From: an uncultured Chloroflexia bacterium
GTDB lineage: Bacteria; Chloroflexota; Anaerolineae; JAAYZQ01
Direction of reading: 5' to 3'
NCBI GenBank assembly: GCA_963700285.1
Contig: CAVOXA010000010.1
Location: 160,001 to 224,000 of the forward strand
DNA length: 64,000 nt
Shown: piece by piece, positions 6,911 through 36,548 of the stretch
Numbering within the stretch: position 1 is the stretch's first letter
Layout: every line of letters begins with the position of its first letter
Notes under the pieces: generated by a model
What the model was told of the DNA's origin: nothing
Seen by the model: the letters and a program-made list of their open reading frames with translations, nothing else
The model's database searches: none
Position numbers and translations under genes: made by a program

Positions 6911-9235
6911 CTACAGGCCCAGCGCCCTATGGCACGCAGTCTCGCCTTTGCCCGGCTGCAAGTCATGGCCCAGCAAAACCCGCTCAAGCGTGAGAGGAAG
7001 CTGGTGATGGCGGATGCCGGTCGCGTGAAATACCGCGTTGGCCAGGGCTGGAGCCGTCCCAACAAGAACTGGCTCGGCCAAGTTCTTGGCTCCATATGGC
7101 CCCTCCGGAAAATTGGTCTCGATGAACGTTGCCTCGATCTCTGGCACGTCTAACGCCGTCGGGATCAGGTAGGTGTCATAGTTCAGTGACTGGGGATAGC
7201 CGTCTTGGTAGTTCATCTCCTCCAGCAAACCATAGCCCATTCCCTGGGCGATACCTCCGTACATCTGACCATAGGCACCCTGAGGATAGATAATCGTGCC
7301 GCCGTCGTGGGCTGCCCAGACTTTGGACACCGTAACCTGTCCGATAGGCAGATCAACTTCAACTTCGACCACATGCGCTCCAAAAGTATAGCAGTAGTAA
7401 GGGGTACCGGTGCCGGTCTCTTCATGCCACTCGATGTGAGGCATGCTCCATTTGCCCTGCACTGACAAGGTCAGCCCCATCTGACGCGCCCTGTCCACGA
7501 CTTGCTCAAAGGGCAGTTCATCTTCGTCAGGATTGACGTACAGCTCGCCATGGCGAGTCACTTGAGCTGGAGTACAATCGAGGGCATCAGCGGCGGCATA
7601 GCGCAACAGCCTGTCCAACTTTTCGGCTGCAACCCGAGCAGCGTTGCCGCCCAACATGGAAGCTCGCGAGGCAACTGTGGGTCCTGATTCGATGGCCGTA
7701 TCGGTGTCTGGCCTCAGAACGCGGATGCGAGCCGGTTCCACACCCAGAGTTTCGGCCGCGATCAAGGCAAAGACAGTACGACTACCTTGACCATAGTCGG
7801 TCAAGCCCGAGGTCAAGGTGACGCGGCAATCGTCCCCAATTCGCAGCGTTGTGTTGGCATAATCTGCACCTTCACCGCCCAAACTGCTGCCATGCATGTA
7901 GCAAGCGACTCCAATGCCCTTTCGCACCTCGCCTCTCAACAATGGAAACTCCCTGCGCTTGCGTTTCCAGTCAGACTTGTCCCGCACCCACTCGAGGCAT
8001 TCGGCCAGCTTGACCTCATGGTCGACGACGTTGCCCGACATAAAGCGGTCGCCTTGCCGGACACAGTTTTGCAGTCGAAAATCAATGGGATCGCGGTCCA
8101 ATCTGTGGGCCAGGTCATCCATAGCCTGTTCCACCGCGGCGGCGGCATCTGTGTTGCCAAACCCACGAAAAGCGCCACAGAAGCCGTTGTTGGTATAGAC
8201 CGTGGTTGTATCGACGTGAACCGCCTGGTACCGGTAAGCACCAGCGGCATGCAAAGATGCCCTGAGCATGGCCAATGTTGTCATAGAGCTGTAGCAGCCA
8301 CTGTCGGCCAGCATGTCGACTTTTGCTGCCTGCAAGTTGCCATCTTGATCGGCGCCGATGCGAAACTGGATCGACATCGGCTCGCGCTTGTACGAGGCCA
8401 TCATCGATTCCTCTCGACCCAGCACCAGCCTGACCGGTCGCCCTGACTTGAGAGCCAGCGCCGCTACCTGCCCCGATGTTTGGTAGCCAACATCATCCTT
8501 CCCGCCAAAAGAGCCGCCAACCTGGGGCGTGATGATGCGCACTTTTTCAGAAGGCAGTCCCAACACAGTGCACATATGCGTGTGGTTGATAAAGGGGCTC
8601 TGCCCATTATACCGTATGGTGACACTGCCATCAGGATGGGGAATGGCCAACGCTGCCTCAGGTTCCAGGTATGCGTGCTCTTGACGGCCGGTACGGAAAG
8701 TTTCTTCGTACAGCACAGGGCTTTGCTCCAGTATGGGTTCCGGATCCCCATAGCGGACGATATGCTTCGCGCAAAAGTTGCCCTGTTCAGAAACAGGAAC
8801 GAGCGGGACCTGGGGCGCGTCCGGTGCCAGGGCCTGTTCCGGATCAAAGACGCCGGGCAGCTCTTCCAGCTCCAACTCGATGGCATCGACCCCGGCCCGG
8901 GCCGCGGCCGCCGTCTCCGCGGCGACTGCGGCAATCGCATTGCCCACATAGAGCACCTTCTGGTAGGCCAGTACATACTGGTCCTTGATGGGCCAGCCCC
9001 ACAGACTGTGCTCCACAAAGTCGTCCGAGGTAATGACAGCTACCACGCCTGGCACTTGCAGGGCTGGTTCGACATCCAAACGCACGATTTTGGCATGAGG
9101 CACCGGGCTGCGCAGCACCTTTGTATGGAGCATGTCGGGCAGCTGAATATCACCCACATACCGGATTGTGCCCATCATCTTTTCCAGACCATCGACACCA
9201 TCAGCGGGCCGGCCTACGTACTTGAGCGTCGTCAT
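6911..9235 (-). CDS. xanthine dehydrogenase-family molybdopterin-binding subunit
   Basis: QEHAYLEP, GGSFGGK, AFRGFG, GPTVASR and GAKNLAEP motifs; start MTTLKY at 9235 overlaps the upstream stop. Confidence 0.93.
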   Translation of the reverse strand: MTTLKYVGRPADGVDGLEKMMGTIRYVGDIQLPDMLHTKVLRSPVPHAKIVRLDVEPALQVPGVVAVITSDDFVEHSLWGWPIKDQYVLAYQKVLYVGNAIAAVAAETAAAARAGVDAIELELEELPGVFDPEQALAPDAPQVPLVPVSEQGNFCAKHIVRYGDPEPILEQSPVLYEETFRTGRQEHAYLEPEAALAIPHPDGSVTIRYNGQSPFINHTHMCTVLGLPSEKVRIITPQVGGSFGGKDDVGYQTSGQVAALALKSGRPVRLVLGREESMMASYKREPMSIQFRIGADQDGNLQAAKVDMLADSGCYSSMTTLAMLRASLHAAGAYRYQAVHVDTTTVYTNNGFCGAFRGFGNTDAAAAVEQAMDDLAHRLDRDPIDFRLQNCVRQGDRFMSGNVVDHEVKLAECLEWVRDKSDWKRKRREFPLLRGEVRKGIGVACYMHGSSLGGEGADYANTTLRIGDDCRVTLTSGLTDYGQGSRTVFALIAAETLGVEPARIRVLRPDTDTAIESGPTVASRASMLGGNAARVAAEKLDRLLRYAAADALDCTPAQVTRHGELYVNPDEDELPFEQVVDRARQMGLTLSVQGKWSMPHIEWHEETGTGTPYYCYTFGAHVVEVEVDLPIGQVTVSKVWAAHDGGTIIYPQGAYGQMYGGIAQGMGYGLLEEMNYQDGYPQSLNYDTYLIPTALDVPEIEATFIETNFPEGPYGAKNLAEPVLVGTAPALANAVFHATGIRHHQLPLTLERVLLGHDLQPGKGETACHRALGL

Positions 9236-9717
9236 ACTTCCCTCCTGCCACCGGCCCGCCGCCGGGCTGCGGTTGTCTCCACGGCGTCGACAATCTGTTG
9301 ATAGCCAGTGCACCGGCACAGGGTGCCAGAAATCCCATCCCGTATCTCCTCACGGGTGGGATGCTTGTTCTGCGCCAAAAACGCCTCGGCGGCCATAATC
9401 ATGCCCGGCGTACAATAGCCGCACTGCACAGCACCGAATTCCTGAAAGGCCAGTTGTAGGTCATTCGGTCCACCATCGGCGCCACGAATCCCCTCGATGG
9501 TCGTCACGGCTCGGTCGCCGACCTGGGGCGCCAGAAGCTGGCACGAGTTTACGACTTGGCCGTCCAGTAGCACCGCGCAGGCACCACATTCGCCCACCTC
9601 ACAGCCTGGTTTGGGGCCGGTCAGGCCCAAGTATTCTCTCAGGAGTTGAAGCAAGCTGATACTGGCTGGCGCCTCCACTTCCACCGGGTTGCCGTTCAAC
9701 GTGAAACTTATCTTCAT
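9232..9717 (-). CDS. xanthine dehydrogenase-family 2x[2Fe-2S] subunit
   Basis: GCEVGECGAC, QCGYCTPG and LCRCTGY. Confidence 0.95.
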   Translation of the reverse strand: MKISFTLNGNPVEVEAPASISLLQLLREYLGLTGPKPGCEVGECGACAVLLDGQVVNSCQLLAPQVGDRAVTTIEGIRGADGGPNDLQLAFQEFGAVQCGYCTPGMIMAAEAFLAQNKHPTREEIRDGISGTLCRCTGYQQIVDAVETTAARRRAGGRREV

Positions 9718-10568
9718 GCTTGCAGTACCTCATTCAATGCGCGCACGGTGAGCGCCGCGATGGCCCGTTCCTTGTATGGCGCCGACCAGCGCCCTCCTGA
9801 TTCTGCCATGAATAGCTCAGCCATGCGCTGCCCCGCCGCCTGTATCCGTTGTGCGGAAGGTCGTTGGCCCCAGAGCATCTCTTCGACGGCGGTTGCTCGC
9901 TGGAACCGGGCAAAGGCTGCTCCGGGCACCAGCCGAATCAGGACAACCTGGTTTTTGTTATCCAGCATGCCCATGGCCGCTACCGAAAGCCGGGCGATCG
10001 ACATTGCCCGGCGGCGGCCGATGCGCTGAAAGGCCGATCGGCTCCCTGCCGGCGCTACATCGAAAACGAACGCTTCGACCAAGCTGTCGCTGGAAAGCCC
10101 AGTTCGGTTCACACCGGTGACTAGATCGGCCACGGGAACCAGGTTCTCACCTGAACCGCTGACCACGACAGCACTGGCGCCCATGCAGACCAACGCTGGC
10201 AGCGTGTCGGCGCAGGCCGCTGCATTGACGACGTTTCCGCCTACGGTGGCAATGTTGCGGATCTGGGGGCTGCCGATTTGGCGACAAGCCTGGACCAGGA
10301 GAGGCGCCCTTTCCTGCAATCCTGGGTGGGCTGCGACCTCGGCGTGGGTTACCGCTGCGCCGATACGCACCTCGCCATCAACTTGGATGGCCCGAAGCTC
10401 CGGAACGTGTCCCACGTCCACCACTCTGTCACAGGAGCTCTCGCCGCTACGGAATTGGTTGACCAAGTCGGTGCCTCCAGCCAGAATGCGGCTTCTCAGG
10501 CCGGGCTCGCCGAGATAATCCACGGCCTCACGCAGGCTATGCGCACGTACGTACTCGAAATCTCCCAT
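9714..10568 (-). CDS. xanthine dehydrogenase-family FAD-binding subunit
   Basis: LAGGTDL and IGSPQIRNIATVGGN. Confidence 0.93.
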   Translation of the reverse strand: MGDFEYVRAHSLREAVDYLGEPGLRSRILAGGTDLVNQFRSGESSCDRVVDVGHVPELRAIQVDGEVRIGAAVTHAEVAAHPGLQERAPLLVQACRQIGSPQIRNIATVGGNVVNAAACADTLPALVCMGASAVVVSGSGENLVPVADLVTGVNRTGLSSDSLVEAFVFDVAPAGSRSAFQRIGRRRAMSIARLSVAAMGMLDNKNQVVLIRLVPGAAFARFQRATAVEEMLWGQRPSAQRIQAAGQRMAELFMAESGGRWSAPYKERAIAALTVRALNEVLQA

Positions 10569-10737: not shown

Positions 10738-11712
10738 CTACTCCCAACAGTTATGAGGCCAGGCGTGACCGGCAAGTCGCTCAACGACCTCAGGCGGCAA
10801 ACTGCCCTTGTCTGATGCCTGGGTATTGGCCTTGACGTGCTCGATCCGCCGCATCCCAGCAAGAACTGACGATACAGCCGGATCGCTCAAGCAGAAGCGT
10901 AGTGCCCCTTCGGCCAGTGTTTCAACGTCGTCACCGACCAGCCAGTCGAGTGCCTCGGCATGCTCAATTGCCTGCGCCAGTCGATCGCCGCCAAAGTAGT
11001 TGTTCCGCCAGTCATCCTCGGGAAAGGTCGTATCCAGGGTGAGTTTGCCCGTTAACGCACCCTCGTCCAGCGGGCAGCGGACAACAATGCCAACATCATG
11101 CTTCTGAGCCAGAGGGAAGAGCAGATCCTGGGGCTCTTGCTGGTAGATATTGTAGACGACCTGGCACACGTCGATCAGGCCAGTCTCGATGGCCTTTTGC
11201 GGGATATGGGAGTCCTCCAAGGGAAAGACCAGTGAAAGGCCAAAGCTGCGGACTTTGCCTTGTTCTTGCAACTGAACGGCGGCCTCTTTCCATTCGTCAC
11301 AATCGGCCCACTCGTCCATCCATACATGGAGCATCTGTACATCCAATTGCTCCCGGCCCAGGTTCTTGAGGCTTTGCTCGCTGTTTTCGATAATCCACGC
11401 TTTGGTGTATGCATCGGCAAAAGAATCGCCTGACTTGGGTCCGAAATTGTAGTTCATCGGGCGGACCTTGGTTGCCACGTATACCTCTTCAGGCCGACCC
11501 TTTAGTACCTGCCCAATCAACCGTTCGCTGTGACCATTGCCATAACCCATCGCCGTGTCGATGAAATTCACGCCCAAATCCAGGGCCAGATTCATTGAGT
11601 TGAGGGCGTCCTCGTCGGTGCTGCCTTTCCACCAATCGAGGCCAATGCCCCATGCTCCGTAGCCGATCTCGGAGACCTCAAATCCTGCTTTACCTAGCTT
11701 GCGATAGCGCAT
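10738..11712 (-). CDS. aldo/keto reductase
   Basis: MRYRKLGKAGFEVSEIGYGAW, FIDTAMGYG and YVATK. Confidence 0.92.
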   Translation of the reverse strand: MRYRKLGKAGFEVSEIGYGAWGIGLDWWKGSTDEDALNSMNLALDLGVNFIDTAMGYGNGHSERLIGQVLKGRPEEVYVATKVRPMNYNFGPKSGDSFADAYTKAWIIENSEQSLKNLGREQLDVQMLHVWMDEWADCDEWKEAAVQLQEQGKVRSFGLSLVFPLEDSHIPQKAIETGLIDVCQVVYNIYQQEPQDLLFPLAQKHDVGIVVRCPLDEGALTGKLTLDTTFPEDDWRNNYFGGDRLAQAIEHAEALDWLVGDDVETLAEGALRFCLSDPAVSSVLAGMRRIEHVKANTQASDKGSLPPEVVERLAGHAWPHNCWE

Positions 11713-11762: not shown

Positions 11763-12629
11763 CTAGCTTAGCAGCTCGTGCAGGTGGTAGGAGTGTTTGC
11801 CAAAGGACCCACCAAAGTTCATGGCTCCGATCTGTACGACGCCTGGGACCTGAGCAGCTGCATTGATTGCTACTTTCATGGCACGCTGCATCAGGACTGG
11901 CGTGGAACCGAACATCAACAGGTTGAGGATCGACTCAACCCCATCGGGGACTTGGCTGTCTTCGATCCTGTCCCGCAGCGCGGGCACATAGTCCAGCTCG
12001 CGAAAGACCTGCTCCAAACCATAGCCCATGGGCGCTACCCCGTCCACGGCAGCGATGGCATCCTTGGCAGCCTTGACCGCCAGTACAGAAGACGCCTCAG
12101 ATTTGGCAAAGCACACGATATGCCCATCTGTGCCACGGGTCGAAAGGTGGACCGACTTTTCATAGGTGAATTCGCCGGTCATCGTCGGGACGACGCTCAG
12201 ACGGCGCTCACCCAGATCTCGTTCCGTGTCATAGCCTTGCCACCGCTCCGAGGTGAGGGCATACAGGTCCACTTTCTCGGTCGCCTCCGCATCCTCTACC
12301 ATGAAATCATAGATGGCCAGGGTCGGTATGAGGGTGCCCAGTACAATGCGCAGAGAAAGCTCCTCGCTAAAGGCCTGCCGGGCCTCGGGCGTCATCGTAC
12401 AGGAAACAATCACCCCCGGCCGGCCGTCGGGTGTTTCCGCGGGATGCGCCATCCGCTCTATTCCGGCATTGATCCGTGATCCCAGTTCACTCGAACCAGC
12501 GGCACCGACGAACTGGTGCGCGCCGCCCAAGGCCACGTCTTCAGAGATTGCCGTCAGGACGAGCCGGACCACTTCCAAGTCCCACGCCTCCGCAAAAGTG
12601 TCCTGAATGAGAACGTCGTTAATCTTCAT
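11763..12629 (-). CDS. ftr: divergent formylmethanofuran:tetrahydromethanopterin formyltransferase (Ftr/FhcD)-like protein
   Basis: N-terminal MKINDVLIQDTFAEAW, PAETPDGRPGV, VPTMTGEF and C-terminal GVVQIGAMNFGGSFGKHSYHLHELL match Ftr hallmarks; internal motifs are divergent. Confidence 0.82.
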   Translation of the reverse strand: MKINDVLIQDTFAEAWDLEVVRLVLTAISEDVALGGAHQFVGAAGSSELGSRINAGIERMAHPAETPDGRPGVIVSCTMTPEARQAFSEELSLRIVLGTLIPTLAIYDFMVEDAEATEKVDLYALTSERWQGYDTERDLGERRLSVVPTMTGEFTYEKSVHLSTRGTDGHIVCFAKSEASSVLAVKAAKDAIAAVDGVAPMGYGLEQVFRELDYVPALRDRIEDSQVPDGVESILNLLMFGSTPVLMQRAMKVAINAAAQVPGVVQIGAMNFGGSFGKHSYHLHELLS

Positions 12630-12653: not shown

Positions 12654-13709
12654 CTACAGATCTTCATTGACCACCATGACTTTGAGCCCTATTCTCTCGT
12701 TGGCAAAGCCAAAAGCCTTTTGAATATCATCCAATGAGTAGTGGTGGGAGATAATGGTATCCAGCCGGACATTGCCCGATTGCATCAGCGCCACCGCCTT
12801 TTCATAGTCGGCACGAGTTGAATCATGCGTACCAACAAACCGAAGCTCCTTATAGTGAATCACATCCAGATTCAAGGTGACGGGGTCGCTGAGTGTTGCT
12901 GCAAAATACAGGACCTGGCCCTGCTTGGCCGACATTTGGAACGCCTCTTCCAGCACGGTAGGATCGAGACCCGCCGCACTCACCACGACGTCAGCACCAA
13001 ACCCCCCGGTAATCTCTTTCACTTTGTCTATCAGGTCCGTGTCTACCTCATGCGGTTTGTCTGCGTGAAGAATGTGGTTTGCCCCAAGGTCTCCGGCAAC
13101 ACTGAGCCTCTTTGGTTTCAAGTCGATGGCAATGACCTGCATGCCGCGGCTCTTTAGGAGCTGCACGTGGATGAGACCAATAGGACCGGAGCCAATGACA
13201 ACACCAAAGCCGCCCATAGGAATATCGATTAGCTTGTTGTTGCCATTGATGCAGCAAGCCAACGGTTCTGCAAAGGCCGCCTCGATGATGTCCACGTTAT
13301 CGGGCACCGGAACCAAGTTCTTGTAAGGATAGACTGCGTATTGCCCAAAGCCGCCGGCAATATAGCCGGCATCCACGCACAGGTTCTCGTGCCCGCGGCG
13401 GCAGTAACGGCAATAGCCACAGGGCAACCTGCCATCAGGCACCACCCTGGCTCCAACACCCAAACTGGGTTTGTCAGGCACCTCGTCCCCAATTGCATGG
13501 ATGGTCCCCGAAAGCTCGTGTCCCATCTGAAAAGGGAACTTGATCTTCCAGCCCGAGGGCTTTCTACCATTGTAGAGATTGAGATCCGTTCCGCAAATGC
13601 CACAGGCAGCAACCTTGACCACCACCTCATCGCTTCCTGGCTGAGGAATCTCGCTTTCCTTGAACACAAACTGGCCGTTCTCCTGAATCAACGCGTTTTT
13701 CGTCTTCAT
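12654..13709 (-). CDS. Zn-dependent alcohol/polyol dehydrogenase (sorbitol/threonine dehydrogenase type)
   Basis: CGICGTD, GHE, CGYCRYCRRGHENLC and GSGPIG. Confidence 0.92.
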   Translation of the reverse strand: MKTKNALIQENGQFVFKESEIPQPGSDEVVVKVAACGICGTDLNLYNGRKPSGWKIKFPFQMGHELSGTIHAIGDEVPDKPSLGVGARVVPDGRLPCGYCRYCRRGHENLCVDAGYIAGGFGQYAVYPYKNLVPVPDNVDIIEAAFAEPLACCINGNNKLIDIPMGGFGVVIGSGPIGLIHVQLLKSRGMQVIAIDLKPKRLSVAGDLGANHILHADKPHEVDTDLIDKVKEITGGFGADVVVSAAGLDPTVLEEAFQMSAKQGQVLYFAATLSDPVTLNLDVIHYKELRFVGTHDSTRADYEKAVALMQSGNVRLDTIISHHYSLDDIQKAFGFANERIGLKVMVVNEDL

Positions 13710-13748: not shown

Positions 13749-15149
13749 TCACGACAAAGAATAGTAGGGTGATACTTCCAACCCAGCGTCGGCAAACCGT
13801 TTGATTGCGTACGCCTCAGCCTCTGAAACAATCTCTTCCTCATCAAAGCGAAGCAGCTTGCGTTCGTGCACGAGCACCTGGCCGTCAACGATCACGGTCT
13901 CTACGTCGCTGGATGCACTGGCACAGTAGACAAGGTTGTTCACAATGTTGTTGATCGGCCGCATGTGGGTAGCGGTCAGATCCACCAGTATGACGTCGGC
14001 CTTTTTTCCAGTCTCCAACGAGCCGATCTCGTTCTCCATTCCCAGGGCCCGAGCCCCGCCCATGGTAGCCATTTCCAACACCTGATAGGCACTGAGAGCA
14101 GCAGCGTCCATTACGCTTACCTTTTGCAGGAAAGCCGCCGTGCGCATTGCCTCGAACATGTCCATGTTGTCGTTGACAGCACAGCTATCGGTTCCCAAAG
14201 AGACCACCACGCCGGCATCCAACATCTTGGTGATAGGCGCTACCCCGTCAGCGACCTTCATGTTGCATTCAGGATTGTGGGCCACCGATGTGCCCGTGTC
14301 CTTCAACAACTGGATATCATCATCTGACAGCCAGATGCAGTGAGCGCCCAATACGTCCGGTCCCAGCAGCCCGATATCGAACAGGTAGCGAGTCGGAGTT
14401 GTTCCACAGAGGTTGTGGATGTTTTCCCACTCAAATTTGGTCTCGGCGACATGGATGTGAATGCCTACCTCATTCTGAGTGGCCAGGGCGCGTACCTTTT
14501 GCATCAACTCGCCGCCACAGGAATTGGGGCAGGCCAATCCGTAGCGAAAGGTAACCAGGCCATCCTTCTGGTGCTGGCAGTGCTGGATCAACTGGTCCGC
14601 AAGGTCCAGGGCGATATGTTCGGGGAGCAGCATGCCTTCTTTGCTCCATTGATCCACATCGGTCAAGGTCAGCGTTTGTACCACACGCAAGCCCATTTCC
14701 TCAAAGACATCGATCGTCTCTGGAGGTGTAGCCCACTCCATGTTCAGCAGACAGGTGATACCTGACCGCAGCGCGTCAACACAGCCCAGCCGAGAGGACT
14801 GGATCTGCAAACCAAAGTCACCGGCGAGATAGCCCTGGACAGCCATCACGATGCGCGGACTCGACACATTCTCAATCCAGTCTACCAGCTCGAGATCGTC
14901 CGGCGTTCCCTTTAGAAAATTCTGTAGAAAGTGGTGGTGCGTATCGATGAGCCCAGGTAGAACAGCGCGATGGTGAGCATCGATGACTTGGCCGGCAGAG
15001 TACTGGGCAACCAAGGTCTCTGTCGCGCCGATGTCCACGATCCTGCCATTCTTGATGGCCACCGCGCCATCGTAGAGAATGGTACGGTCCCTATCCATGG
15101 TAATGACCACGCCGTCGCGGATGAGCAGGTCGACCTTCATTGGGTTCAT
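13749..15149 (-). CDS. amidohydrolase, MtaD/AtzB-type heterocycle deaminase family (copy 1)
   Basis: PGLIDTHHH, HIHVAE, AHCIW, HNPECNMK, SLGTD and GSLETGKKAD. Confidence 0.9.
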   Translation of the reverse strand: MNPMKVDLLIRDGVVITMDRDRTILYDGAVAIKNGRIVDIGATETLVAQYSAGQVIDAHHRAVLPGLIDTHHHFLQNFLKGTPDDLELVDWIENVSSPRIVMAVQGYLAGDFGLQIQSSRLGCVDALRSGITCLLNMEWATPPETIDVFEEMGLRVVQTLTLTDVDQWSKEGMLLPEHIALDLADQLIQHCQHQKDGLVTFRYGLACPNSCGGELMQKVRALATQNEVGIHIHVAETKFEWENIHNLCGTTPTRYLFDIGLLGPDVLGAHCIWLSDDDIQLLKDTGTSVAHNPECNMKVADGVAPITKMLDAGVVVSLGTDSCAVNDNMDMFEAMRTAAFLQKVSVMDAAALSAYQVLEMATMGGARALGMENEIGSLETGKKADVILVDLTATHMRPINNIVNNLVYCASASSDVETVIVDGQVLVHERKLLRFDEEEIVSEAEAYAIKRFADAGLEVSPYYSLS

Positions 15150-26538: not shown

Positions 26539-26567
26539 TTGACAACGCCCTGAAACTATGATATAAT
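26539..26567 (+). promoter_or_regulatory. sigma70 promoter of the rightward (gntR-ABC) operon
   Basis: Perfect TTGACA-17 nt-TATAAT with TGn extension. Confidence 0.8.
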
Positions 26568-26642: not shown

Positions 26643-27413
26643 ATGGTATCCGACATTCTGGATCGCGCTCTAGACAATCGCACAGCCGGCATCCCACTCT
26701 ATCGCCACATTGAGGAGGATCTCCTCGGCCAGATTACACAAGGAGACCTCCAGTCAGGCGAGATGATCCCCGCTGAACGAGAACTGTGCGAGCACTATGG
26801 CGTGAGCCGCATCACCGTTCGACGCGCGATTGGCGAGTTAGAGACTCGGGGCTACGTCCAACGATACCAGGGCAAGGGTACGTTCGTAAGCCGCACCCGG
26901 ATTCGGCGTGAGATGGGACACCTCCTGAGCTTCTCTGAGGAAATGCGATCCCAGGGTCACGCCCCCGGATCCAAGCTACTCAATCTCCAGCATTGTCCAG
27001 CCGACAAGTCCATCGCCTCTGCCCTCCAGTTGGACAAGGGAGAACCGGTCTGGATTGTCGAACGATTGAGGCTTGCCGACGATGAGGTCATCTCACTAAG
27101 CATTTCCTACCTACATCTGCCTCGGGATGTCTATTTGACCCCACTCGAACTCGGCGGGCACAGCTCGTTGTGGTCGTTGCTTGCCAACAAGGGGGTACAC
27201 ATCACCGAAGGCAACGCCTCAGTTCGAGCGACTGTGGCCGATAGCCATTATGCGCAACTGTTGGGCATAGAGGAAGGCGACCCTCTATTGGTACGCGAAG
27301 GCGTAAACTACTCAAGTAGAAAGCAGCCGATTCCTGTGGAAGCCTTTGAGATCGTCAGTCGCGCGGATCGCTACCAGTATTCGTTGCACTTGATCCACCA
27401 GACGGTCGAGTGA
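26643..27413 (+). CDS. GntR/HutC-family regulator (UTRA domain)
   Basis: IPAERELCEHYGVSRITVRRAI...QGKGTFV, LLSFSEEM and VERLRLAD. Confidence 0.93.
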   Translation: MVSDILDRALDNRTAGIPLYRHIEEDLLGQITQGDLQSGEMIPAERELCEHYGVSRITVRRAIGELETRGYVQRYQGKGTFVSRTRIRREMGHLLSFSEEMRSQGHAPGSKLLNLQHCPADKSIASALQLDKGEPVWIVERLRLADDEVISLSISYLHLPRDVYLTPLELGGHSSLWSLLANKGVHITEGNASVRATVADSHYAQLLGIEEGDPLLVREGVNYSSRKQPIPVEAFEIVSRADRYQYSLHLIHQTVE

Positions 27414-27579: not shown

Positions 27580-29029
27580 ATGACGGCTAAGAAAAGCTTG
27601 TTCCTGATCATGGTTCTGGTGTTACTCTTGGCTGCATGTGGCCCAACACCCGAGCCCCAGACGGTCGTGCAGACCGTAGAGGTCGAAAAGACGGTTATCG
27701 AGACAGTTGTGGAAACCGTCGAAGTTGAGGTCGAAAAGACGGTTGTCGAGACGGTTGTGGAAACCGTCGAGGTCGAAGTCGAGGTTCCCGTCATCGAGAC
27801 TGTCGTCGTAGAGGTCGAGGGCAAGGCTCCCGAGCAGATCTCCTTTGCCGGTCACCAGTACTTCAACCTGTCCTTCGGCGCAGCCCCTGCTCCCTTGGAG
27901 GACATGAAGGCCAGGGCCACAGGAAGCCTACCCTGGTATGGACATCCAGTTGATCATGCAGCCTCTGGATGCCAACAAGTGGCACGACAATCTCACCACC
28001 TATTTCATCGCTGAAGATCAGACGGTGGACATCTTGTACACCGCAGGCTACTGGATAGCCGAGTTTGGTGCCGCCGACTGGCTGGTGGACCTCAAGGAGG
28101 TGGTGGATCCGGAGCTTTTGGCCAAGTACGATCCCGCCTACCTTGATGTATTCACCTACGACGGCAAGCTGCTGGGCATCGGCCCCTCGTGGGGCGGCAT
28201 CGGCGGTCTGTACTATCGCTCCGATCTGTTGGATGAGTATGGCATCGAACCGCCCGAGACCTACGATGACATCATCGCTGCCTGCGACACGATTCAGGCG
28301 GACCAGCCCGAGCTGGGTTGCTGGGACTGGCCGGCGATGAGGAACGTTGTCCTGGTCAACCGCTGGTCCGAGTATCTTTATGGCTTTGGCGGCACATACC
28401 TGAACGAGGACGGAACCTGCGCCATGAATTCGCCAGAGGCTGTTGCGGCCCTCGAGTTCATGACCATGCTCTTTGAAGAGGGCTATAGCCCGGAGGAAGC
28501 ACTGTCATGGAAGGAAGAGGACGCCAACGTGCGCTTCGCGAGTGGCGAGACCATCTTTTTCAGCGGGCGGCAGGACCTTCTCTTCTGGATCAACAACCCT
28601 GATAGTTCCAAGGTGGTGGATATGTGGGGCTTTATCCCGAACCCGGCCCAGCCTGGTGGCAAGCACTCTGGCTATACCGAGTTCTGGGCATTCTCCATCA
28701 GCAAGTTCAGCGACAATCCTGAGGAGGCCCTGGGCGTCCTGGAGGAATGGGGAAGCTTTGACACCATGAAGAACTTTAACCTGGCTTGGGGACCGATCCA
28801 GGGTCACGGCGATGTATACACCGATCCCGACGTTCTTGAGGCCAACCCGTACCTGCCTCTCGTCGAAGAGATCGCCTTGACCGCTCTGGCGCCTATGCCC
28901 AGCGAGAACTTTGGTGAGGTGTCTGATATCCTGCAGGCCGAGATCCATTCGGCTCTCTCAGGCCTGAGCACACCCCAAGAAGCACTTGACAATGCCTGCG
29001 CTGCCATCGACGCCATAAGCATGCCCTAG
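27580..29029 (+). CDS. carbohydrate-type ABC transporter substrate-binding lipoprotein (frameshift ~27920)
   Basis: Lipobox LAAC, V/E/T-rich linker, then SBP_bac_1-like LYYRSDLL, PETYDD and MNSPEAVAAL. Confidence 0.88.
27679..27790 (+). repeat. 48-nt coding tandem repeat (EVEKTV[I/V]ETVVETVEV) in the SBP linker
   Basis: GAGGTCGAAAAGACGGTT at 27679 and 27727. Confidence 0.8.
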
Positions 29030-29065
29030 TCTCACCACGACCGCATGATGGCGGTACCTACCTAT

Positions 29066-29112
29066 GGGTGCCGCGCCGCCAACCTGTCGGTTTCCTGAGC
29101 GGCGCGGCACCC
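29066..29112 (+). terminator. 14-bp GC-rich hairpin after the SBP gene (mRNA stabiliser/partial terminator)
   Basis: GGGTGCCGCGCCGC...GCGGCGCGGCACCC. Confidence 0.6.
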
Positions 29113-29177
29113 TCTAGGTTCGCAGATAGCGATCACTGCAGCCGAGAGCTGCAAGACTCACATGAGGTGACCTGTCG

Positions 29178-30074
29178 ATGAAGATCAGGCTGCGAGAGCC
29201 AGCTCTAGCTGCTACTATTTATTCTACCAGCCTTTGTATTTGTGGCACTCTTTCTTTATTATCCCCTTCTTCAAACTGCTTTTATAGCTTTTTCAAACTG
29301 CACCGGACCGTAGACTGGCTGAATGACACCTTTGTCGGGCTGCAGAACTATGCTGCCGTATTCAGGAGCGAGGCATTTCGATCTTCGTTTCTGTTTACTC
29401 TATACTTTACAGTCATGACGGTTGCCCTTGAGCTTTGCCTGGGATTGGGCATGGCCATCGCGACCTTTTCAGTCCACCCCAGGCTTCGCGGTATCTTGAG
29501 GGCAGTGATGGTGGTACCATGGGCCATCCCCCCCATCGTTTCGGCAATGCTGTGGAAATGGCTGTTCCATGCCGATGCCGGTGTATTTGCCTATCTTTTG
29601 ACCAGCAGTGGTCTGGTCGAGAACCTCCCTCCTTTTCTCACCGACCCGACCTTGGCCATTCACAGCATCATCATCGCCTCGGTGTGGAAGAACGCATCCA
29701 TCATGGGCATTCTCCTGCTGGGGGGTTTGGCATCCATCCCAAAGGATGTCTACGATGCCGCCAAGGTGGATGGAGCCCGGACCTGGTTTCGCTTCCGGCG
29801 GGTGACCTTGCCCATGCTTCTGCCAACCATCTTGGTCACCGTCCTGTTTCGGACTCTGCTGGCGCTGCGCATGTTCGAGCTTTCCTATGGAATGACTGGC
29901 GGCGGACCTGGCACGACGACAGATACACTTAGTACCTTTGCCTACAAGTACTACTTTACCTACTCCAGGTTTGGTGTAGGGTCTTCGTATGCCATGGTCA
30001 TATTTGCCATCGTTCTTGCCGTGGCCATCATCTATGTGAGTAGGGTACGGGGAAACCTGAGGTTCAAGGAATGA
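29178..30074 (+). CDS. sugar ABC transporter permease 1 (compensating indels near the N-terminus)
   Basis: FVGLQNY, PWAIP and EAA loop YDAAKVDGA...VTLPML. Confidence 0.9.
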   Translation: MKIRLREPALAATIYSTSLCICGTLSLLSPSSNCFYSFFKLHRTVDWLNDTFVGLQNYAAVFRSEAFRSSFLFTLYFTVMTVALELCLGLGMAIATFSVHPRLRGILRAVMVVPWAIPPIVSAMLWKWLFHADAGVFAYLLTSSGLVENLPPFLTDPTLAIHSIIIASVWKNASIMGILLLGGLASIPKDVYDAAKVDGARTWFRFRRVTLPMLLPTILVTVLFRTLLALRMFELSYGMTGGGPGTTTDTLSTFAYKYYFTYSRFGVGSSYAMVIFAIVLAVAIIYVSRVRGNLRFKE

Positions 30075-31002
30075 GCACAGCCAATCGATATCAACGCCGA
30101 CGGCTATTCGGCCGGGTGTGGGAGCTCGTGGTCACCATTCGCTGTTGTTGCCTTTTGCCTGGGGCCCCTGTTCTGGGTGCTGTCAACTTCTCTGAAACCG
30201 ATGGGGGCCGAATACCTGATTCCGCCGGAACTCTGGCCATCCAAGCCAACTCTGCAATCCTACGAGGTCATTCTGGGAATATCCCAACCCGGTCAGAGCG
30301 GACGATTCAGAGCAAAGCTCCATAACGGGCGCGGAGGAGGTAGGGGTGGCATCAACCCTTGGCTTTCTCACTCCCATTCGAAACAGCCTGATTGTCGCAT
30401 CCACAGTCGCCATCTGCGCTCTGCTGGTTTCAGCATTGGCAGCCTATGCCATTGCGCGCTTGCGCTTCCGGTGGAAGATCCAATCCCTGATGCTTCTGTG
30501 GGTTGGCGGGTTGCTGCCAGCGGTCATGGTCATCGCACCTACCTTTGTCCTCATGAGATCTCTCGGTTTGCTCAAGACCCTGCCAGCGATGATCCTGCCC
30601 AACATTGCCTACAATATCCCGCTGGCCACCTGGTTGCTGGCCGTCTATTTCTCCACGCTGCCATGGGAGCTGGAGGATGCGGCCAAAGTTGATGGCTACA
30701 AACCCTTCCAGATCTTTTGGAAGGTGATCCTGCCACTTTCGGCACCAGGGCTGTTCTCGGCGGGCGTCTTTGCCTTTCTCGGCTCGTGGGGTGAGTTTAT
30801 GCTGGCCAGCGTCGTGAGTATGGGCATCGCCGAGGTACAGACGGTGCCGGTGGCGATTCTGAATCTGTCTTTCGAGTATCGCTACCAGTGGACCTGGATC
30901 TCAGCGGCGATCATCGTGTCGGTGGGCCTGATGGTTTTTGTTGCACTCATCTTCCAGCGCTGGGTAATTCAAGGTTTGACAGCGGGTTCGGTCAAGTATT
31001 GA
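30071..31002 (+). CDS. sugar ABC transporter permease 2 (apparent indels)
   Basis: STSLKP...IPPELWPSKPTL, NSLIVA, ELEDAAKVDG and QGLTAGSVK. Confidence 0.88.
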
Positions 31003-31124
31003 GGCCCTGTGGAGAGCGCACAATTCCCAGTCTGATAGCGCAGGGGAAAGGCTCAATGGCGCCGTACAACCCGTGTTGAAAGGGCACCGGCCGGTGTCAA
31101 GCAACAAGATGAAAGGGATTCTTT

Positions 31125-32229
31125 ATGGCTGAAGTCCGCGTTGAGTATATGTGCAAGCTGTTCGGTCAAGTCAAGGCACTAGACGAGGTTAGCTGCACAT
31201 TTGAGGATGGCCAACTCACAGTGCTGGTTGGGCCGTCCGGCTGCGGCAAAACGACCCTGCTCCGCTCAATCGCGGGGCTGGAGGAGCCCTCAAGCGGCTC
31301 GATCTACATCGGTGAAGAGAACGTCGACGGCGCTCCCGCCTGGGAGCGCGATCTGGCCATGGTGTTTCAGAGCTACGCGCTCTATCCTCATATGTCCGTC
31401 TATAAGAACATCGCTTTCCCGTTGCAGGCTACAAAGACCCCCAAGGATGAGATCAAGTACTCGCGTACACAACACAGCCAGAATCCTTCAGATCGAGAAG
31501 CTGCTTGAGAGAAAGCCACGGGAGCTGTCAGGTGGGCAGATGCAAAGGGTTGCCCTCGGGCGGGCAATCGTTCGTGAACCTGCCGTTTTTCTGATGGACG
31601 AACCCCTCTCCAACCTGGATGCCAAACTGCGGGTGATCATGAGGGCCGAACTCAGGCACTTGCAGCAGCAGCTCGGCGTCACCACCATCTATGTCACCCA
31701 CGACCAGGCGGAGGCCATGACTCTGGCCGACAAACTGATTGTGATGAACGATGGCTGCATACAGCAGGTCGGAAAACCCGAAGACGTCTATCGCTACCCG
31801 CAGAACAAGTTCGTGGCCGGCTTTATTGGCAGCCCCCCAATGAACTTTATCGACTGCCGATTGGACACGGCCCAAAATGCCTTGATCAGTGACCTCATGG
31901 AACGCAAGCTTGATCCCAATGTGGTCCAAGCTGCGACCACACAGGGCTCCAACGAACGGATCCTCGGAGTGAGGCCCGAGGACCTGACTGCAGAGCCAAC
32001 GCCATCCCCGGGTGCCATACAAGGCAAAGTCTACGTAATGGAACAGCTGGGGAGAGAGATATTGCTCAACGCCATGGTCGGTGACGAGATGGTCAGGGCT
32101 TTTGTACCGGCAGACTCGGAGTTCGAAGCTGAGCAGCAGGTATGGCTTACTTTCCATGACGAGAGCCTCCATATTTTCGACGGCGATTCCGAGGAGACTC
32201 TCTATTCCGGCAACCGGGTGCCAGCCTAG
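31125..32229 (+). CDS. MalK-type ABC ATPase (frameshift ~31457)
   Basis: GPSGCGKTT, LSGGQMQR, LMDEPLSNLDAKLR and YVTHDQ. Confidence 0.92.
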
Positions 32230-32412: not shown

Positions 32413-33766
32413 ATGAATATTGTCATGATTATCTCGGACACTTTTCGTCGAGACCATTTGGGCTGCTATGGCAATCCCTGGATCCATACGCCGCATCTCG
32501 ACCGGCTCGCCGAGCAGTCCATCGTCTTTGACCAAGCCTATGCAGCTTCATTTCCCACCGTACCCCATCGCGCCGACGTGTTGACCGGCAAGTACAACTT
32601 TACCTACCTGGGATGGCAACCTCTTCCCCAGAGCGAGATCACCCTGCCCCAAGTACTGAGTGCGGCGGGCTACAGCACCATGGGCATCGTCGATACACCT
32701 TTCTACATGAGAAACGGCTACGGCTATGATCGTGGTTTTGCGAGACTTTGACTTTGTTCGAGGACAGAACTACATGTCGCCGACGTGGGAAGACGCGATC
32801 CAGGACCGCCGTCATGAAGCGGACTATTTTGCCCCGGCCACGATGGCTCGCGCCGAACAATGGCTGGAAAGGCACTACAAGGAGCGATTCTTCCTGTTGG
32901 TGGATGCTTGGGATCCTCACGAGCCTTGGGACCCACCGGACTACTATGCGGCGCTGTACGACGGCTACGATGGCAAGCCCGCCCACTGGCCCTGTTACTG
33001 GGACTGGCAGGAGGCAGGGCTCACCGAACAGGATGTCATGAGAGCACACGCCGCCTATTGTGGCGAAATCACCATGGTCGACCGCTCGGTCGGCCGGCTC
33101 CTGGAACGACTCGAGTCTCTGGGGCTGCTGGAGGACACGGCCATCATCTTTACCTCGGACCATGGGCACTATTTTGGGGAACACGGACTGTTTGGCAAAG
33201 CCATGCAGAGAGACGAACATGGTTTCAACACGGACACCTTTGCCCCAGGGCGGTGGTACCGTTCCCCTCTCTTTGATGAGGTGACACGAGTGCCACTCCT
33301 CATTTCCCTTCCACAGAGAGAACCCGGTCGCCTGGACGCCCTGGTCTCCTCGCCGGACTTGATGCCGACGATCCTGGATCTGGTAGGGATAGAGGTACCC
33401 GAGAGCGTCCAGAGTGCCTCGCTGGTACCGCTGATCCATGGTGACCTGGAAGGTGTCCACGATTTGGTTGTCACTTCCTGGCCCTTGTACATCCCCGGGC
33501 AGACGATTCGGGTCGTGGACGACCTGCAACGAGGAGTCGTGGAACCATTGCCGAGTACCATCACCGATGGTGAGTGGGCCCTGCATTTTGCCGTTGAAGG
33601 TGCTCCAGTGGAACTGTACCATACGGCATCAGATCCCGAACAGCAGGAGAACTGCTATCGTGAAAACGAAACAATCGCCAGGGATCTGCACACGAGATTT
33701 GTCAAGTTCCTGGAGGAGATGGGTACTGAGGAAGGGCGTATCGCCCCTCGTAGACGGCTGGCGTAG
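32413..33766 (+). CDS. sulfatase-like hydrolase (alkaline phosphatase superfamily; frameshift ~32737)
   Basis: MIISDTFRRDHLGCYG, SFPTVPHRADVLTG, DPHEPWDPP and FTSDHG. Confidence 0.88.
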
Positions 33767-33851: not shown

Positions 33852-35261
33852 ATGAGGAGCCAGCGAACCGCTCCCACTGCGGTCGACCTTCTTGTTCAGC
33901 ATGGTACGGTGGTCACTATGGACCCGGCCAAGACCATTCTGTACGACGGCGCTGTGGCCATCGACAGCGGGCGCATCGTGGCCATTGGACCAGAGGATGA
34001 GATCCTGGGCCGCTATGTTGGCCTGAAGACGATCAACGCTGGTGAGAAAGCGGTACTGCCGGGCCTGATTGATACCCACCATCATTTCCTACAAAATTTC
34101 CTGAAAGGCGCGCGGGACGACCTGCCCTTTGTGGAATGGATCGCTCAGATATCTTCTCCTCTCATCAGCCTCGCCATTCAGGACTATTTGGACGGCAGCT
34201 ATGAACTCCAGCGGCAGGCGACGCGCTTGGGCTGCACGGAAGCACTGCTATCGGGGATTACGACCATTCTCAACATGGAATGGGCCACAGCACCCCAAAT
34301 CGTCGATGTATACGAACAAGCCGGCTTGCGGGTTGTCCACACATTGTACTTGACCGACGTCGACCAGTGGGGCAGTCCGGGGATGCTCTTGCCCATCGAT
34401 GCCACCATGGACCTGGCTGACAGGCTAATCAGACGCTGCAGCGAGTCTGACGGCGGCCGTGTCACATTTCGCTACGGCCCAGCTTGCGAGAACTCGGCCA
34501 GTACTGGTCTCCTCGGCGAGATCCGGTCGCTGGCGGATGAGAACCATGTTGGCATCCACATCCACGTTGCCGAGAGCCAGTTCGGCTGGGACAATATCCA
34601 CCAACTGCATAACAAAACCCCCGTCGAATACTTGCGCGACATCGGGTTCTTGGGCCCCGACGTATTGGGCGCTCACTGCATATGGCTTTCCGACAACGAT
34701 ATCCAGATTCTCAAAGACAGCGGCGCCTCGGTATCTTATAGCCCCGAATGCCACATGAAGCTGGCACTGGGGGTCGCACCGATCGTGAAAATGCTGGAAG
34801 CGGGAGTGCCCGTATCATTGGCCACCGACACCTGTGCGGTCAATGACAACATGGATATCTTTGAGGCGATGCGGGCCGGCGCCTTCCTGCAAAAGATCTC
34901 TACCATGGATCCGTCCGTCCTGCCCGCCTACCAGGCTCTGGAAATGGCTACCATGGGAGGGGCAGTGTCATTGGGTATGGCCGGCGACATTGGTTCCCTA
35001 GAGGTCGGGAAGAAGGCGGATCTCATACTTGTGGACCTAAGCGGCACGCACATGCAGCCCATCAACAATCTCATCAACAACCTGGTCTATTGCGCTAGCG
35101 CCGCCAGCGACGTCAAGACCGTGATTGTGGATGGCCGGATTATCGTCGAAGAGGGAACACTGCTGTCCTGGGGCGAAGGCCAGGTCGTCGCCGAGGCTCT
35201 GGAGTATGCCAACAGCCGGTTTCGAGAAGCGCGCCTGCCCGTATCGGCCTACTATCAGTAG
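33852..35261 (+). CDS. amidohydrolase, MtaD/AtzB-type heterocycle deaminase family (copy 2)
   Basis: PGLIDTHHHFLQNFLKG, HIHVAE and SLATD..VNDNMD; clear paralogue of 13749-15149. Confidence 0.9.
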   Translation: MRSQRTAPTAVDLLVQHGTVVTMDPAKTILYDGAVAIDSGRIVAIGPEDEILGRYVGLKTINAGEKAVLPGLIDTHHHFLQNFLKGARDDLPFVEWIAQISSPLISLAIQDYLDGSYELQRQATRLGCTEALLSGITTILNMEWATAPQIVDVYEQAGLRVVHTLYLTDVDQWGSPGMLLPIDATMDLADRLIRRCSESDGGRVTFRYGPACENSASTGLLGEIRSLADENHVGIHIHVAESQFGWDNIHQLHNKTPVEYLRDIGFLGPDVLGAHCIWLSDNDIQILKDSGASVSYSPECHMKLALGVAPIVKMLEAGVPVSLATDTCAVNDNMDIFEAMRAGAFLQKISTMDPSVLPAYQALEMATMGGAVSLGMAGDIGSLEVGKKADLILVDLSGTHMQPINNLINNLVYCASAASDVKTVIVDGRIIVEEGTLLSWGEGQVVAEALEYANSRFREARLPVSAYYQ

Positions 35262-35297
35262 CCTAGCACACTGGATATACGGAGGAGAGAAGCAACA

Positions 35298-36548
35298 ATG
35301 GAGACAACACCCACCGATCTTTACCAAAAAAGAGCGCAGCGAGTGGAAGCGGCGGTTCGCCTGCAGGTTCCGGATCGCGTTCCCTTTTTCCTTTTCTCCG
35401 GCTATCTTCCATGCCGTTATGTTGGCATGCCACTTCAAGAGGCCCACCATGATAGCGACCGCTACTTTTCTGCCTGCAAGCAGCTAACACTCGACCTGGC
35501 ACCCGACATATACTTTAACGCCGGCAGCCCTGTCAAAACCGCGGGCGCTGCCCTTGAGGCCCTTGAGATGAAACAGATCAAGTGGCCCGGGCATGGCATC
35601 CCGCCTGACTCCCCATTTCAATACATCGATGCCGACTGGGTACAGGCCGATGAGGTCGAAACACTGCTGGCGGATCCTTCCGACTATACCATCCGTACTT
35701 ATTTGCCCCGCATCTATGGCGCCCTGCAGGGGTTTGGTAGCCTGCCGCCCTTGAGTTGGATGCTGATGGGCTATGTGACTACCGGACTGGCCTCGGCCGT
35801 GACCATGCCGGCTGTGGCCAGTGCTCTGGAAGCTCTGGCCGTTGCGGGCCGGGCGGCGGCTGACTGGGCCGTGGGCGAAGCCAAACTGGATCAGGAACTC
35901 GCGTCCCTGGGTTTCCCTGTGCTAGCGGGTTCGGGAACCCTTGCTCCTCTCGATTTGGTGGGCATCATCCGCGGCTCGCGGGGGATGATGCTCGATATGT
36001 ATCGCCAGCCCGACAAGCTGCTCGCCCTGAACGAGAAGCTGTTGCCCATCACCATCGATACGGCCCTGGCTCTGGCACAGATGAGCGGTAACCCACGGGT
36101 TTTTATGGCCATCAACCGCGGGGCCGATGGATTAATGAGCCTCGAGCACTTTAAGACCTTCTACTGGCCCGGCTTCAAAGACGTGGTCTTGGCACTGACT
36201 GATGCAGGATTGACGCCCGTTATCCATTTCCAGGGCTGTTTCGACACCCGGATGGAGTATTTCACCGAGTTTCCCAAAGGCAAGGTCATCGGCCTCTTTG
36301 ATCAATCCGACATGTTCCGAGCCAAAGAGATCTTGGGCAAGACGATGTGCATTGCCGGAAACATGCCCATCTCTCTGCTTCACACGGGACCAGTGGACGA
36401 GGTCAAGGCCTATGCCCAAAAGCTCATCGATGTTGTGGGCAAGGACGGCGGCTTTATCATGTCCTCGAATACAGTTCTGGACGATGCGGATCCTTATCTT
36501 GTCAAGGTTTGGTTGGACTTTACGAAAGAGTATGGAGTCTACAGCTGA
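35298..36548 (+). CDS. uroporphyrinogen decarboxylase/MtaA-CmuA-fold protein
   Basis: PDRVPF, RGSRGMMLDMYRQPDKL, FKTFYWP, CIAGNMP and GKDGGFIM. Confidence 0.82.
   Translation: METTPTDLYQKRAQRVEAAVRLQVPDRVPFFLFSGYLPCRYVGMPLQEAHHDSDRYFSACKQLTLDLAPDIYFNAGSPVKTAGAALEALEMKQIKWPGHGIPPDSPFQYIDADWVQADEVETLLADPSDYTIRTYLPRIYGALQGFGSLPPLSWMLMGYVTTGLASAVTMPAVASALEALAVAGRAAADWAVGEAKLDQELASLGFPVLAGSGTLAPLDLVGIIRGSRGMMLDMYRQPDKLLALNEKLLPITIDTALALAQMSGNPRVFMAINRGADGLMSLEHFKTFYWPGFKDVVLALTDAGLTPVIHFQGCFDTRMEYFTEFPKGKVIGLFDQSDMFRAKEILGKTMCIAGNMPISLLHTGPVDEVKAYAQKLIDVVGKDGGFIMSSNTVLDDADPYLVKVWLDFTKEYGVYS

Follow-up and report, generated by a model that had tools for sequence, protein, structure and literature searches.

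A conserved Chloroflexota gene cassette predicted to couple corrinoid-dependent demethylation to the anaerobic breakdown of a methylated guanine-type nucleoside

Which compound would call for heterocycle deaminases, a molybdenum hydroxylase, sugar enzymes and corrinoid methyltransferases in one place? This question is raised by a 30-kb locus (6911..36548) in a 64,000-nucleotide stretch of DNA from an uncultured Chloroflexia bacterium, hereafter the window (G000:C10:160001-224000; host assembly of 7.05 Mb, 89% complete, 6.5% contamination), for which an anaerobic route for methylated nucleosides or purines had originally been predicted. We find that the locus is a real and conserved cassette, undescribed in print as far as our search reaches, that resembles reductive purine catabolism fused to corrinoid demethylation, with most of its parts failing strict membership of the families they resemble. 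Judged from sequence, it may well degrade a methylated guanine-type nucleoside, or a close conjugate of base and sugar chain, without oxygen; 7-methylguanosine is the best single fit, and we place slightly less than even confidence in this substrate and its reactions, both of which are predicted from gene content and order, conservation, residue patterns and co-occurrence.

The genes of this interval are real, and Pfam places each family of the original prediction at the position given there, with a sulfatase-superfamily gene in addition. The minus strand carries the L/S/M subunits of a xanthine dehydrogenase (XDH)-family enzyme (6911-10568), an aldo-keto reductase (AKR), an Ftr-like protein, a Zn-dependent alcohol dehydrogenase (ADH), amidohydrolase 1, a CCG Fe-S protein, a FAD_binding_4 enzyme, a DeoC/DhnA aldolase, an FGGY kinase, MttB2, corrinoid protein 2, MtmB, corrinoid protein 1 and MttB1. 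The plus strand carries a HutC-type GntR-UTRA regulator (26643..27413), an SBP_bac_1 ATP-binding cassette (ABC) importer, the sulfatase-family protein, amidohydrolase 2 and a URO-D-fold protein. All enzymes of the locus score below the NCBIfam equivalog cut-offs, and the earlier labels of pentose catabolism, GlcDF and Ftr therefore hold as family resemblance only; the GlcD-like and Ftr-like proteins also lack canonical catalytic residues.

The locus is supported as one conserved, divergent unit. Nine other Chloroflexota genomes carry the cassette (G015, G019, G023, G084, G440, which equals G496, G441, G442, G503 and G533), and two Bacillota, G841 and G873, carry a reduced core. The Chloroflexota core comprises the GntR regulator, ABC importer, Tyr-type MtmB with corrinoid protein, MttB, FGGY kinase, aldolase, FAD/CCG dehydrogenase, deaminase, ADH, Ftr-like protein and AKR (10738..11712, minus; orthologs 60-67% identical), and the widest core gntR, fggy, the aldolase, the FAD enzyme, the CCG protein, amidohydrolase 1, ADH and the Ftr-like gene. 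The order fggy-aldo-FAD-CCG-amh1-adh-ftr is kept in G000, G015, G023, G084, G440, G441, G442, G841 and G873, and across two contigs in G019, with ortholog identities of 54-85%; in G503, whose contig is 8 kb long, and in G533, the part of the core that the contigs reach is present. Anchoring on the FAD enzyme recovered 34 metagenome loci, those long enough mostly keeping the order, and the aldolase is missing at its cassette place in L137 and L139. Members that the original prediction had listed as one set, namely XDH, the URO-D-fold protein, MttB1 and amidohydrolase 2, proved accessory, as did the sulfatase-family gene. The methyltransferase block is linked as had been proposed: MtmB lies in the same locus in all ten Chloroflexota carriers (split over two contigs in G019), and its close clade (at least 70% identity), found in 6 of 291 class genomes, picks out the same six genomes as the FAD ortholog, found in 6 of 401. 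With identities of 70-85%, mtmB is the most conserved gene of this rare cassette.

Sampling the phylum added one carrier in 400 genomes, and two of 401 Bacillota genomes carried the cassette; a genome scan with the Ftr-like alignment, which is no census, gave at least 6 cassette loci and at least 74 canonical Ftr loci. The same-genus genome G001 lacks the cassette, and a plasmid search returned distant amidohydrolases only (best rows about 36%). A paralogous ABC importer and a GH38 glycosidase were observed at L106:4541-12513 and L107:7562-10450 (G441 and G442), and G441 further has two Gfo/Idh/MocA dehydrogenases, an isomerase-like TIM barrel and a sulfatase.

The divergent arrangement around gntR is also visible in the promoters. 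A scan found 4 sites compared to 1.0 +/- 0.9 in shuffled sequence, and two of these stand back-to-back between mttB1 and gntR: a sigma70-like promoter for the left operon (26048-26020, minus; TTGACA-17-TATGAT, 11/12) and a perfect one for the right operon (26539..26567, plus; TTGACA-17-TATAAT, 12/12). A common operator, ATGATATAAT, was considered at both promoters and rejected, as it overlaps the extended -10 box and relatives match it only with 1-3 mismatches. Just outside the cassette, a split transketolase (2563-4445, minus) was excluded from the unit because two opposite-strand genes intervene; the pair is not conserved with the cassette, nearby matches in the sole relative reaching 30-36%.

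Roughly 11 reading-frame breaks, about 10 frameshifts and an in-frame TAG at 23177-23179, fall between 21.5 and 33 kb and affect seven genes: mtmB, cor1, mttB1, sbp, perm2, malK and the sulfatase. Such clustering would favor a cassette that is decaying in this strain, as would its absence from G001, and a chance grouping of common families might be suspected given about 25 MttB and 16 related amidohydrolase loci in the genome. Against this explanation, to which we attach the least probability of those considered here, the orthologs are intact and in the same order (among others in G015, G019 and G023), and single-base indels in sediment short-read contigs coincide with four mapped breaks (25274, 25481, 27919 and 31457), evidence that is low in depth with 1-2 contigs per site. 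We therefore read the breaks as likely assembly errors. Further short-read indels, of equally low depth, lie at 24412, 29278/9 and 30135, near gene starts; the sequencing runs contained at most 17% of the words, and the TAG lies outside the listed contig pieces. One sediment RNA run gave contigs across sbp and the cor2/mtmB junction, although contigs cannot show transcription. The TAG, some 20 codons ahead of the pyrrolysine (Pyl) site of mtmB, was rejected as a pyrrolysine codon, since the 15 ortholog loci listed have Trp, Leu or Arg there and pylB exceeded its cut-off in none of the five carrier genomes tested.

The nature of the ring is indicated by the two deaminases. Amidohydrolase 1 (13749..15149, minus) is present in every full-length core; amidohydrolase 2 (33852..35261, plus), a 63% paralog in a second subclade with a PACENS motif, occurs in 3 of 10 Chloroflexota carriers and was not found in the five whole genomes searched, a set that excludes G503 and G533. 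Both enzymes carry, in the numbering of amidohydrolase 1, H71-x-H73, Q76, H233, E236, H270 and D321, each of which recurs in 120 of 120 top homologs, and this combination of a Gln after beta-1 with HxH, HxxE, His and Asp is that of the GuaD-class AHS III enzymes. The Gln after beta-1 marks guanine-class enzymes acting on oxo-amino rings (PMC12828455), and the guanine-class cluster includes N2,N2-dimethylguanine hydrolases that release dimethylamine (PMC13054789). A dimethylamine-releasing variant on this base would be compatible with our preferred explanation. Like the NdmH/AtzB/8-oxoguanine deaminase cluster (PMC13054789, PMC12828455), the cassette enzymes have the beta-1 Gln, the Glu/His/Asp machinery and a Cys at the beta-4 loop; unlike it, they form a separate subfamily with NMEW after beta-3 and an ACPNS/ACENS loop, do not clearly show the CQNN motif and belong to an anaerobic, corrinoid-linked cassette. 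An AlphaFold model of amidohydrolase 1 from an 8-row alignment had a mean predicted local distance difference test score of 55 and was not used.

Collectively, these residues point to a guanine-type base. Given that the guanine-class Gln is present and the adenosine-class features are missing, adenine-type substrates, including the N6-methyladenosine (m6A) named in the original prediction, are unlikely: the Glu of the P-x-E segment and the His of PH(A/S), which are present in aligned MtaD-type structures and have functional roles in MtaD, are replaced by S-P-R/L-I and L/P-A-C. Methylxanthines are likewise not supported as the entry substrate because they offer no amino group to a deaminase that every full-length core retains.

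The fate of the methyl groups is suggested by the MtmB homolog (22337..23724, minus; one frameshift and the TAG), which carries Tyr at Pyl202 and so lacks the pairing of Pyl with pyl genes that marks methylamine methyltransferases. It is accompanied by corrinoid protein 1 (23780..24465, minus; two frameshifts), corrinoid protein 2 (21560..22186, minus), MttB2 (20084..21532, minus), with Tyr at the Pyl site, and MttB1 (24530..25953, minus; three frameshifts), likewise Pyl-free. Among the ten Chloroflexota carriers, MtmB and corrinoid protein 1 occur in 10, MttB2 in 9, corrinoid protein 2 and a pterin-binding methyltransferase, MT2, in 5 each, and MttB1 in 3; MttB1 is also found in L112 and MT2 in the cassette of L134. 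The accessory URO-D-fold protein (35298..36548, plus) is possibly an extra corrinoid methyltransferase, and its 73% ortholog in L112 adjoins a corrinoid gene and mttB1.

The Pyl-free MtmB homolog MtqB demethylates tetramethylammonium and choline, methylamine use being attributed to Pyl (PMC13044021). The cassette MtmB shares the family and an adjacent corrinoid gene with MtqB and with MtmB itself (PDB 1NTH/1L2Q), and with MtqB the lack of Pyl, but belongs to a Tyr clade tied to heterocycle genes. In the same way, the MttBs have the Pyl-free fold, corrinoid partner and, in several relatives, MT2 of the betaine demethylases MtgB, MtcB, MtpB and MtyB (PMC13080624), yet pairwise alignment of MttB2 with MtgB places G, L, S and I at R312, H348, Y97 and F356, as in five orthologs, and MttB1 has His at R312, a residue conserved in all characterised betaine-type MttBs (PMC13080624). 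We infer that these enzymes act directly on a methylated nitrogen of the ring and not on free methylamine, a cationic position such as N7 of 7-methylguanosine being the best candidate.

The original prediction instead had the amidohydrolases release methylamine from m6A or a similar base for MtmB and MttB to demethylate. Alkylamine release by AtzB-cluster enzymes (PMC13054789), the MtmB homology and the database label of the amidohydrolases, MTA/SAH deaminase, are on its side. The relay is nevertheless very improbable because Tyr replaces Pyl202 in MtmB; in addition, the MtaD-type Glu and His are replaced, pylB was not found in the five genomes, and methylamine use goes with Pyl (PMC13044021). 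Even less probable, in our estimate, is a corrinoid module run in reverse, in which methyl addition would activate the ring, as in the methylation of estradiol by EmtAB: the MtmB homolog EmtA does methylate its substrate (bioRxiv 714501) and MT2 could provide methyls from methyl-tetrahydrofolate, but a catabolic unit with several distinct types of methyltransferase is better explained by the removal of methyls from more than one position.

The window holds no corrinoid-reactivating RACE/RamA gene, as originally noted, but the genome does, with RACo/RamA-type genes at C22 and C1; acetyl-CoA synthase is present in all five carriers tested, in G000 at C22. Elsewhere in the host genome, G000:C15:51100-59200 (L148) contains two tandem MtmB homologs (34-36% identical to that of the cassette), a corrinoid gene, a class III aminotransferase, a malic-enzyme-like gene and an amidohydrolase, and at G000:C22:309600-313200 (L149) a GntR-UTRA gene has as neighbors two corrinoid genes and a URO-D paralog (50% identical to that of the window).

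Ring oxidation and opening bring the cassette close to the reductive urate pathway, which consists of XdhD/XdhAC, YgfK or UacX, SsnA, HyuA, YgeW/UacY, YgeY and YgeX (bioRxiv 2025.05.19.654654, 2025.04.24.650524). The XDH subunits (large, with MoCoBD domain, 6911..9235; 2Fe-2S, 9232..9717; FAD, 9714..10568; all minus), likely a ring hydroxylase, stay under all equivalog cut-offs; of Glu232 and Arg310 of the R. capsulatus enzyme, Arg is kept and Glu is Asp, and the Arg is also found in aldehyde oxidoreductase and nicotinate dehydrogenase. Among the ten Chloroflexota carriers these genes stand beside the core only in G000, an ortholog (46-65%; large subunit 55%) adjoins mtmB-cor-gntR in the distant locus L133, and in most relatives tungsten AORs replace them, an orthologous pair in five genomes and two more distant AORs in G440. 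In G084 the AOR pair is on a different contig from the core, in the company of SsnA-like and UacX-like genes, and it is therefore likely that AORs and XDH are parts of a ring module.

An SsnA-like gene is present in 11 of 12 carriers compared to 47 of 401 class genomes (about 12%), a contrast that kinship inflates; within the 401-genome sample it occurs in 6 of 6 carriers, about 2e-4 with the four genera taken as independent. In G015, G019, G442 and L137 it is an immediate neighbor of the core, together with a DHO_dh/Fe-S (UacX-like) partner. In G000 the pair is at C1:540-543 kb, with a partial XDH copy (78% to that of the window) and a paralogous amidohydrolase-FAD-CCG trio. A dihydropyrimidinase was found in G441, and in G841 the core is preceded by YgeY (above cut-off), a carbamoyltransferase, UacX-like, SsnA-like, LacI, corrinoid and MtmB (43%) genes, XDH, AOR and a BMP/PnrA-type importer. 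The gene types SsnA, UacX, YgeY, carbamoyltransferase and XDH match the reductive purine pathway (bioRxiv 2025.05.19.654654, 2025.04.24.650524), and the SsnA-like, UacX-like and YgeY genes, with the BMP-type importer, point to the purine-type ring of the original prediction. The absence of betaine-site residues from the MttBs also agrees with that prediction. The differences from that pathway are that the window holds only XDH of the set, AOR pairs often replace XDH and the SsnA-like proteins are below cut-off; methyl, sugar, deaminase and Ftr-like modules did not appear in the passages of those preprints on the pathway.

The FAD enzyme (16302..17642, minus) and its likely partner, the CCG/4Fe-4S protein (15161..16288, minus; GlcF/HdrD-like), resemble GlcDF and D-lactate dehydrogenase in pairing an FAD subunit of VAO fold with a CCG Fe-S subunit, but the GlcD/D-LDH metal motifs HxGDGNxH and GEHG are absent. 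In its C-terminal part the FAD enzyme aligns with those VAO members that oxidise phenols, Tyr being retained and Arg lost, and Atlas returned no name. Because in G440 the amidohydrolase-FAD-CCG trio adjoins SsnA without sugar genes, we suggest that the enzyme works on the base. The second island of the host (G000:C1:532300-542600, L146:6351-16638) includes a regulator, fmt, a beta-1 Gln amidohydrolase, FAD and CCG paralogs, a truncated XDH large subunit and SsnA-like and UacX-like genes, its trio being 75% conserved with G440:C39. The 2.7-Mb genome G084, an apparent N-heterocycle specialist, has 18 related amidohydrolases, 10 XDH-family large subunits, 6 MtmB homologs, 4 nucleoside hydrolases and 2 Mch.

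The sugar module is the weakest part of our reading. The CUT1 importer (27580..32229, plus) consists of an SBP_bac_1 lipoprotein (SBP), two permeases and a MalK-type ATPase, with frameshifts in sbp, perm2 and malK, and is not of the BMP/PnrA nucleoside type, seen only in G841. The XylB-like FGGY kinase (18565..20028, minus) scores 343 bits against 380 for TIGR01312; Met-His and the Asp of the Asp-Asn sugar site are kept and the Asn is replaced, as in all 16 matches listed. The class I DhnA-type aldolase (17752..18546, minus) keeps the Schiff-base Lys, with MJ0400 as nearest solved relative, and the top match of the ADH (12654..13709, minus) is scyllo-inosose dehydrogenase, under cut-off. The sulfatase-superfamily hydrolase (32413..33766, plus; one frameshift) reads T-V-P-H-R, with Thr at the nucleophile of Cys/Ser-x-Pro-x-Arg, and so departs from the formylglycine sulfatase motif. 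The absence of a nucleosidase or phosphorylase from the window had been noted originally and stands, but the genome has a nucleoside hydrolase at C1, and four of the five carriers tested have one outside the cassette. Either an unlinked enzyme frees the sugar or the chain is cut while attached, and the latter would also fit a polyol chain carried by a pterin or another cofactor. Apart from the cassette, G000:C10:1346000-1365000 (L147) holds a CUT1 ABC system, two FGGY kinases, two DhnA aldolases, a 5'-nucleotidase, an amidohydrolase, a HAD hydrolase, UbiD and an AOR, a second candidate nucleoside-type pathway.

The Ftr-like protein (11763..12629, minus; single copy in G000) has both Ftr domains and about 33% identity to Ftr/FhcD (PDB 1FTR, 1M5S, 6S6Y). 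It differs from these in its neighbors and in residues: Asn replaces Glu245 in 120 of 120 homologs, the Ser209 loop is shortened, and D168-G-H170, E206 and H279 are new invariant residues. Glu245 and Ser209 are catalytic residues of Ftr. Mch, taken as a mark of the H4MPT pathway, was found in one of five carriers tested and not in the other four, including G000 at 89% completeness.

The main alternative, unlikely in our view though still worth weighing, is that the substrate is a pterin-type or cofactor-derived 2-amino-4-oxo heterocycle with an open polyol chain (neopterin-type pterins, methanopterin fragments, ribityl-pyrimidines), from which kinase, dehydrogenase and aldolase would shorten the chain to dihydroxyacetone phosphate and an aldehyde, AOR or AKR finishing without any need for a nucleosidase. 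The core indeed holds no enzyme for a glycosidic bond, and its kinase-aldolase-FAD dehydrogenase order is like that of polyol routes, of which GlpK/GlpD and EryA/EryB are examples. Known members of the Ftr fold bind pterin, the guanine-class Gln fits pterin deaminases too, the solved relatives matched by the SBP include 5IAI, which we take to be a ribitol-bound sugar-ABC protein, and the ECF importer of both Bacillota carriers and the GH38 and Thr-type hydrolase accessories would suit such a compound. A pterin would, however, leave two or three Pyl-free N-methyltransferases linked in ten of ten Chloroflexota carriers unexplained, the ring-module neighbors are purine-type, with YgeY above cut-off in G841, and Mch is missing from four of the five carriers tested.

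We consider it rather less probable again that two loose modules, one for sugars or polyols and one for quaternary-amine demethylation (choline-type, MtqB-like), serve an N-methylated amino-sugar or aminocyclitol glycoside instead of a purine. The disaccharide-class SBP, the scyllo-inosose dehydrogenase match, the precedent of MtqB and, in G441 and G442, cassette neighbors of the GH38, Gfo/Idh/MocA and isomerase types would accord with this, but the guanine-class deaminase in all full-length cores, the enrichment of the SsnA-like gene and the absence of betaine residues from the MttBs speak against it.

Several observations also weigh directly against a methylated guanine-type nucleoside. The Chloroflexota SBP is nearest to maltose/trehalose binders rather than nucleoside binders, the BMP importer of G841 (L134) scores best, under cut-off, with a putative vitamin B6 importer, and G441 and G442 add the second ABC system and the GH38 glycosidase. 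A xylulokinase-like kinase with an aldolase is not the usual ribose route, the annotated flanking open reading frames (a coding-score-filtered subset) include no nucleosidase or phosphorylase, and no nucleoside hydrolase was found in G023, which is 98% complete. Identity of the amidohydrolases to any solved enzyme is about 33-37%, and of the NdmH marks used (the CQNN residues and W85/W93/Y98/Y133) the CQNN motif is not clearly present, the loop reading C-P-N-S-C or C-E-N-S-A when aligned to 7WW2 rather than NdmH. The SsnA-like proteins reach 226-340 bits against a cut-off of 444-455, although SsnA (TIGR03314) ranks first or close to first among the models, and G441 yielded no such protein. Among Pyl-free MtmB homologs, the only ones tested use tetramethylammonium and choline or methylate estradiol (PMC13044021, bioRxiv 714501). 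The close MtmB clade is missing from both Bacillota carriers (best 43-45%), and the methyl module therefore lies outside the widest core. Both have an ECF-type importer directly after ftr (L134:15993-16640 and L157:11750-12376; S components 73% identical), for which Atlas names only "ECF S component", with QueT as a weak lead at 0.88. Finally, the related genomes are not independent samples.

On our preferred explanation, breakdown of a methylated guanine-type nucleoside, the ABC importer would take up the conjugate, which the GntR-UTRA regulator likely senses. The Tyr-type MtmB and the MttB homologs would then pass ring or amine methyls onto the corrinoid proteins, from which tetrahydrofolate and finally the Wood-Ljungdahl pathway would receive them; because the Pyl-free enzymes tested act on a quaternary nitrogen, the N7-methyl of a cationic ring would be a suitable donor. 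The two amidohydrolases likely exchange a 2-amino or 2-alkylamino group for oxygen, XDH, or tungsten AORs in its place in relatives, would adjust the oxidation state of the ring, probably along with the FAD/CCG dehydrogenase, and the UacX-like and SsnA-like enzymes encoded at C1 would reduce and open it. Kinase, aldolase, ADH and AKR likely take the sugar chain apart, and the Ftr-like protein may transfer an N-formyl unit. A more ambitious version seems doubtful to us as a whole: a complete oxygen-free methylguanosine pathway in sediment Chloroflexota in which a Pyl-free MtmB transfers the methyl at N7 of a cationic purine to cobalamin, an Ftr with a new role takes the formyl of the ring-opened product, kinase and aldolase cut the sugar without a nucleosidase and the methyl carbon enters acetogenesis.

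Methylated bases of decaying RNA get into all anoxic sediments and digesters, and the N-demethylases for methylated bases known to us need oxygen. Open-access full text, titles and abstract starts yielded no paper describing corrinoid-dependent purine demethylation or this gene set. If true, our reading would add an undescribed route for recycling modified RNA bases and tie nucleic-acid turnover to C1 metabolism, and both the Pyl-free MtmB proteins and those bacterial Ftr homologs that carry methanogenesis labels in databases would gain a function. The cassette offers four orphan enzyme subfamilies, the Tyr-MtmB, the non-betaine MttB, the guanine-class deaminase pair and the Ftr without Glu245, with intact orthologs and a narrow substrate panel. 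Downstream of the cassette, the window contains multiheme cytochrome, molybdopterin-family, ferredoxin and NrfD-type membrane genes (42023-49571, plus) whose translations, judged by eye, resemble an alternative complex III.

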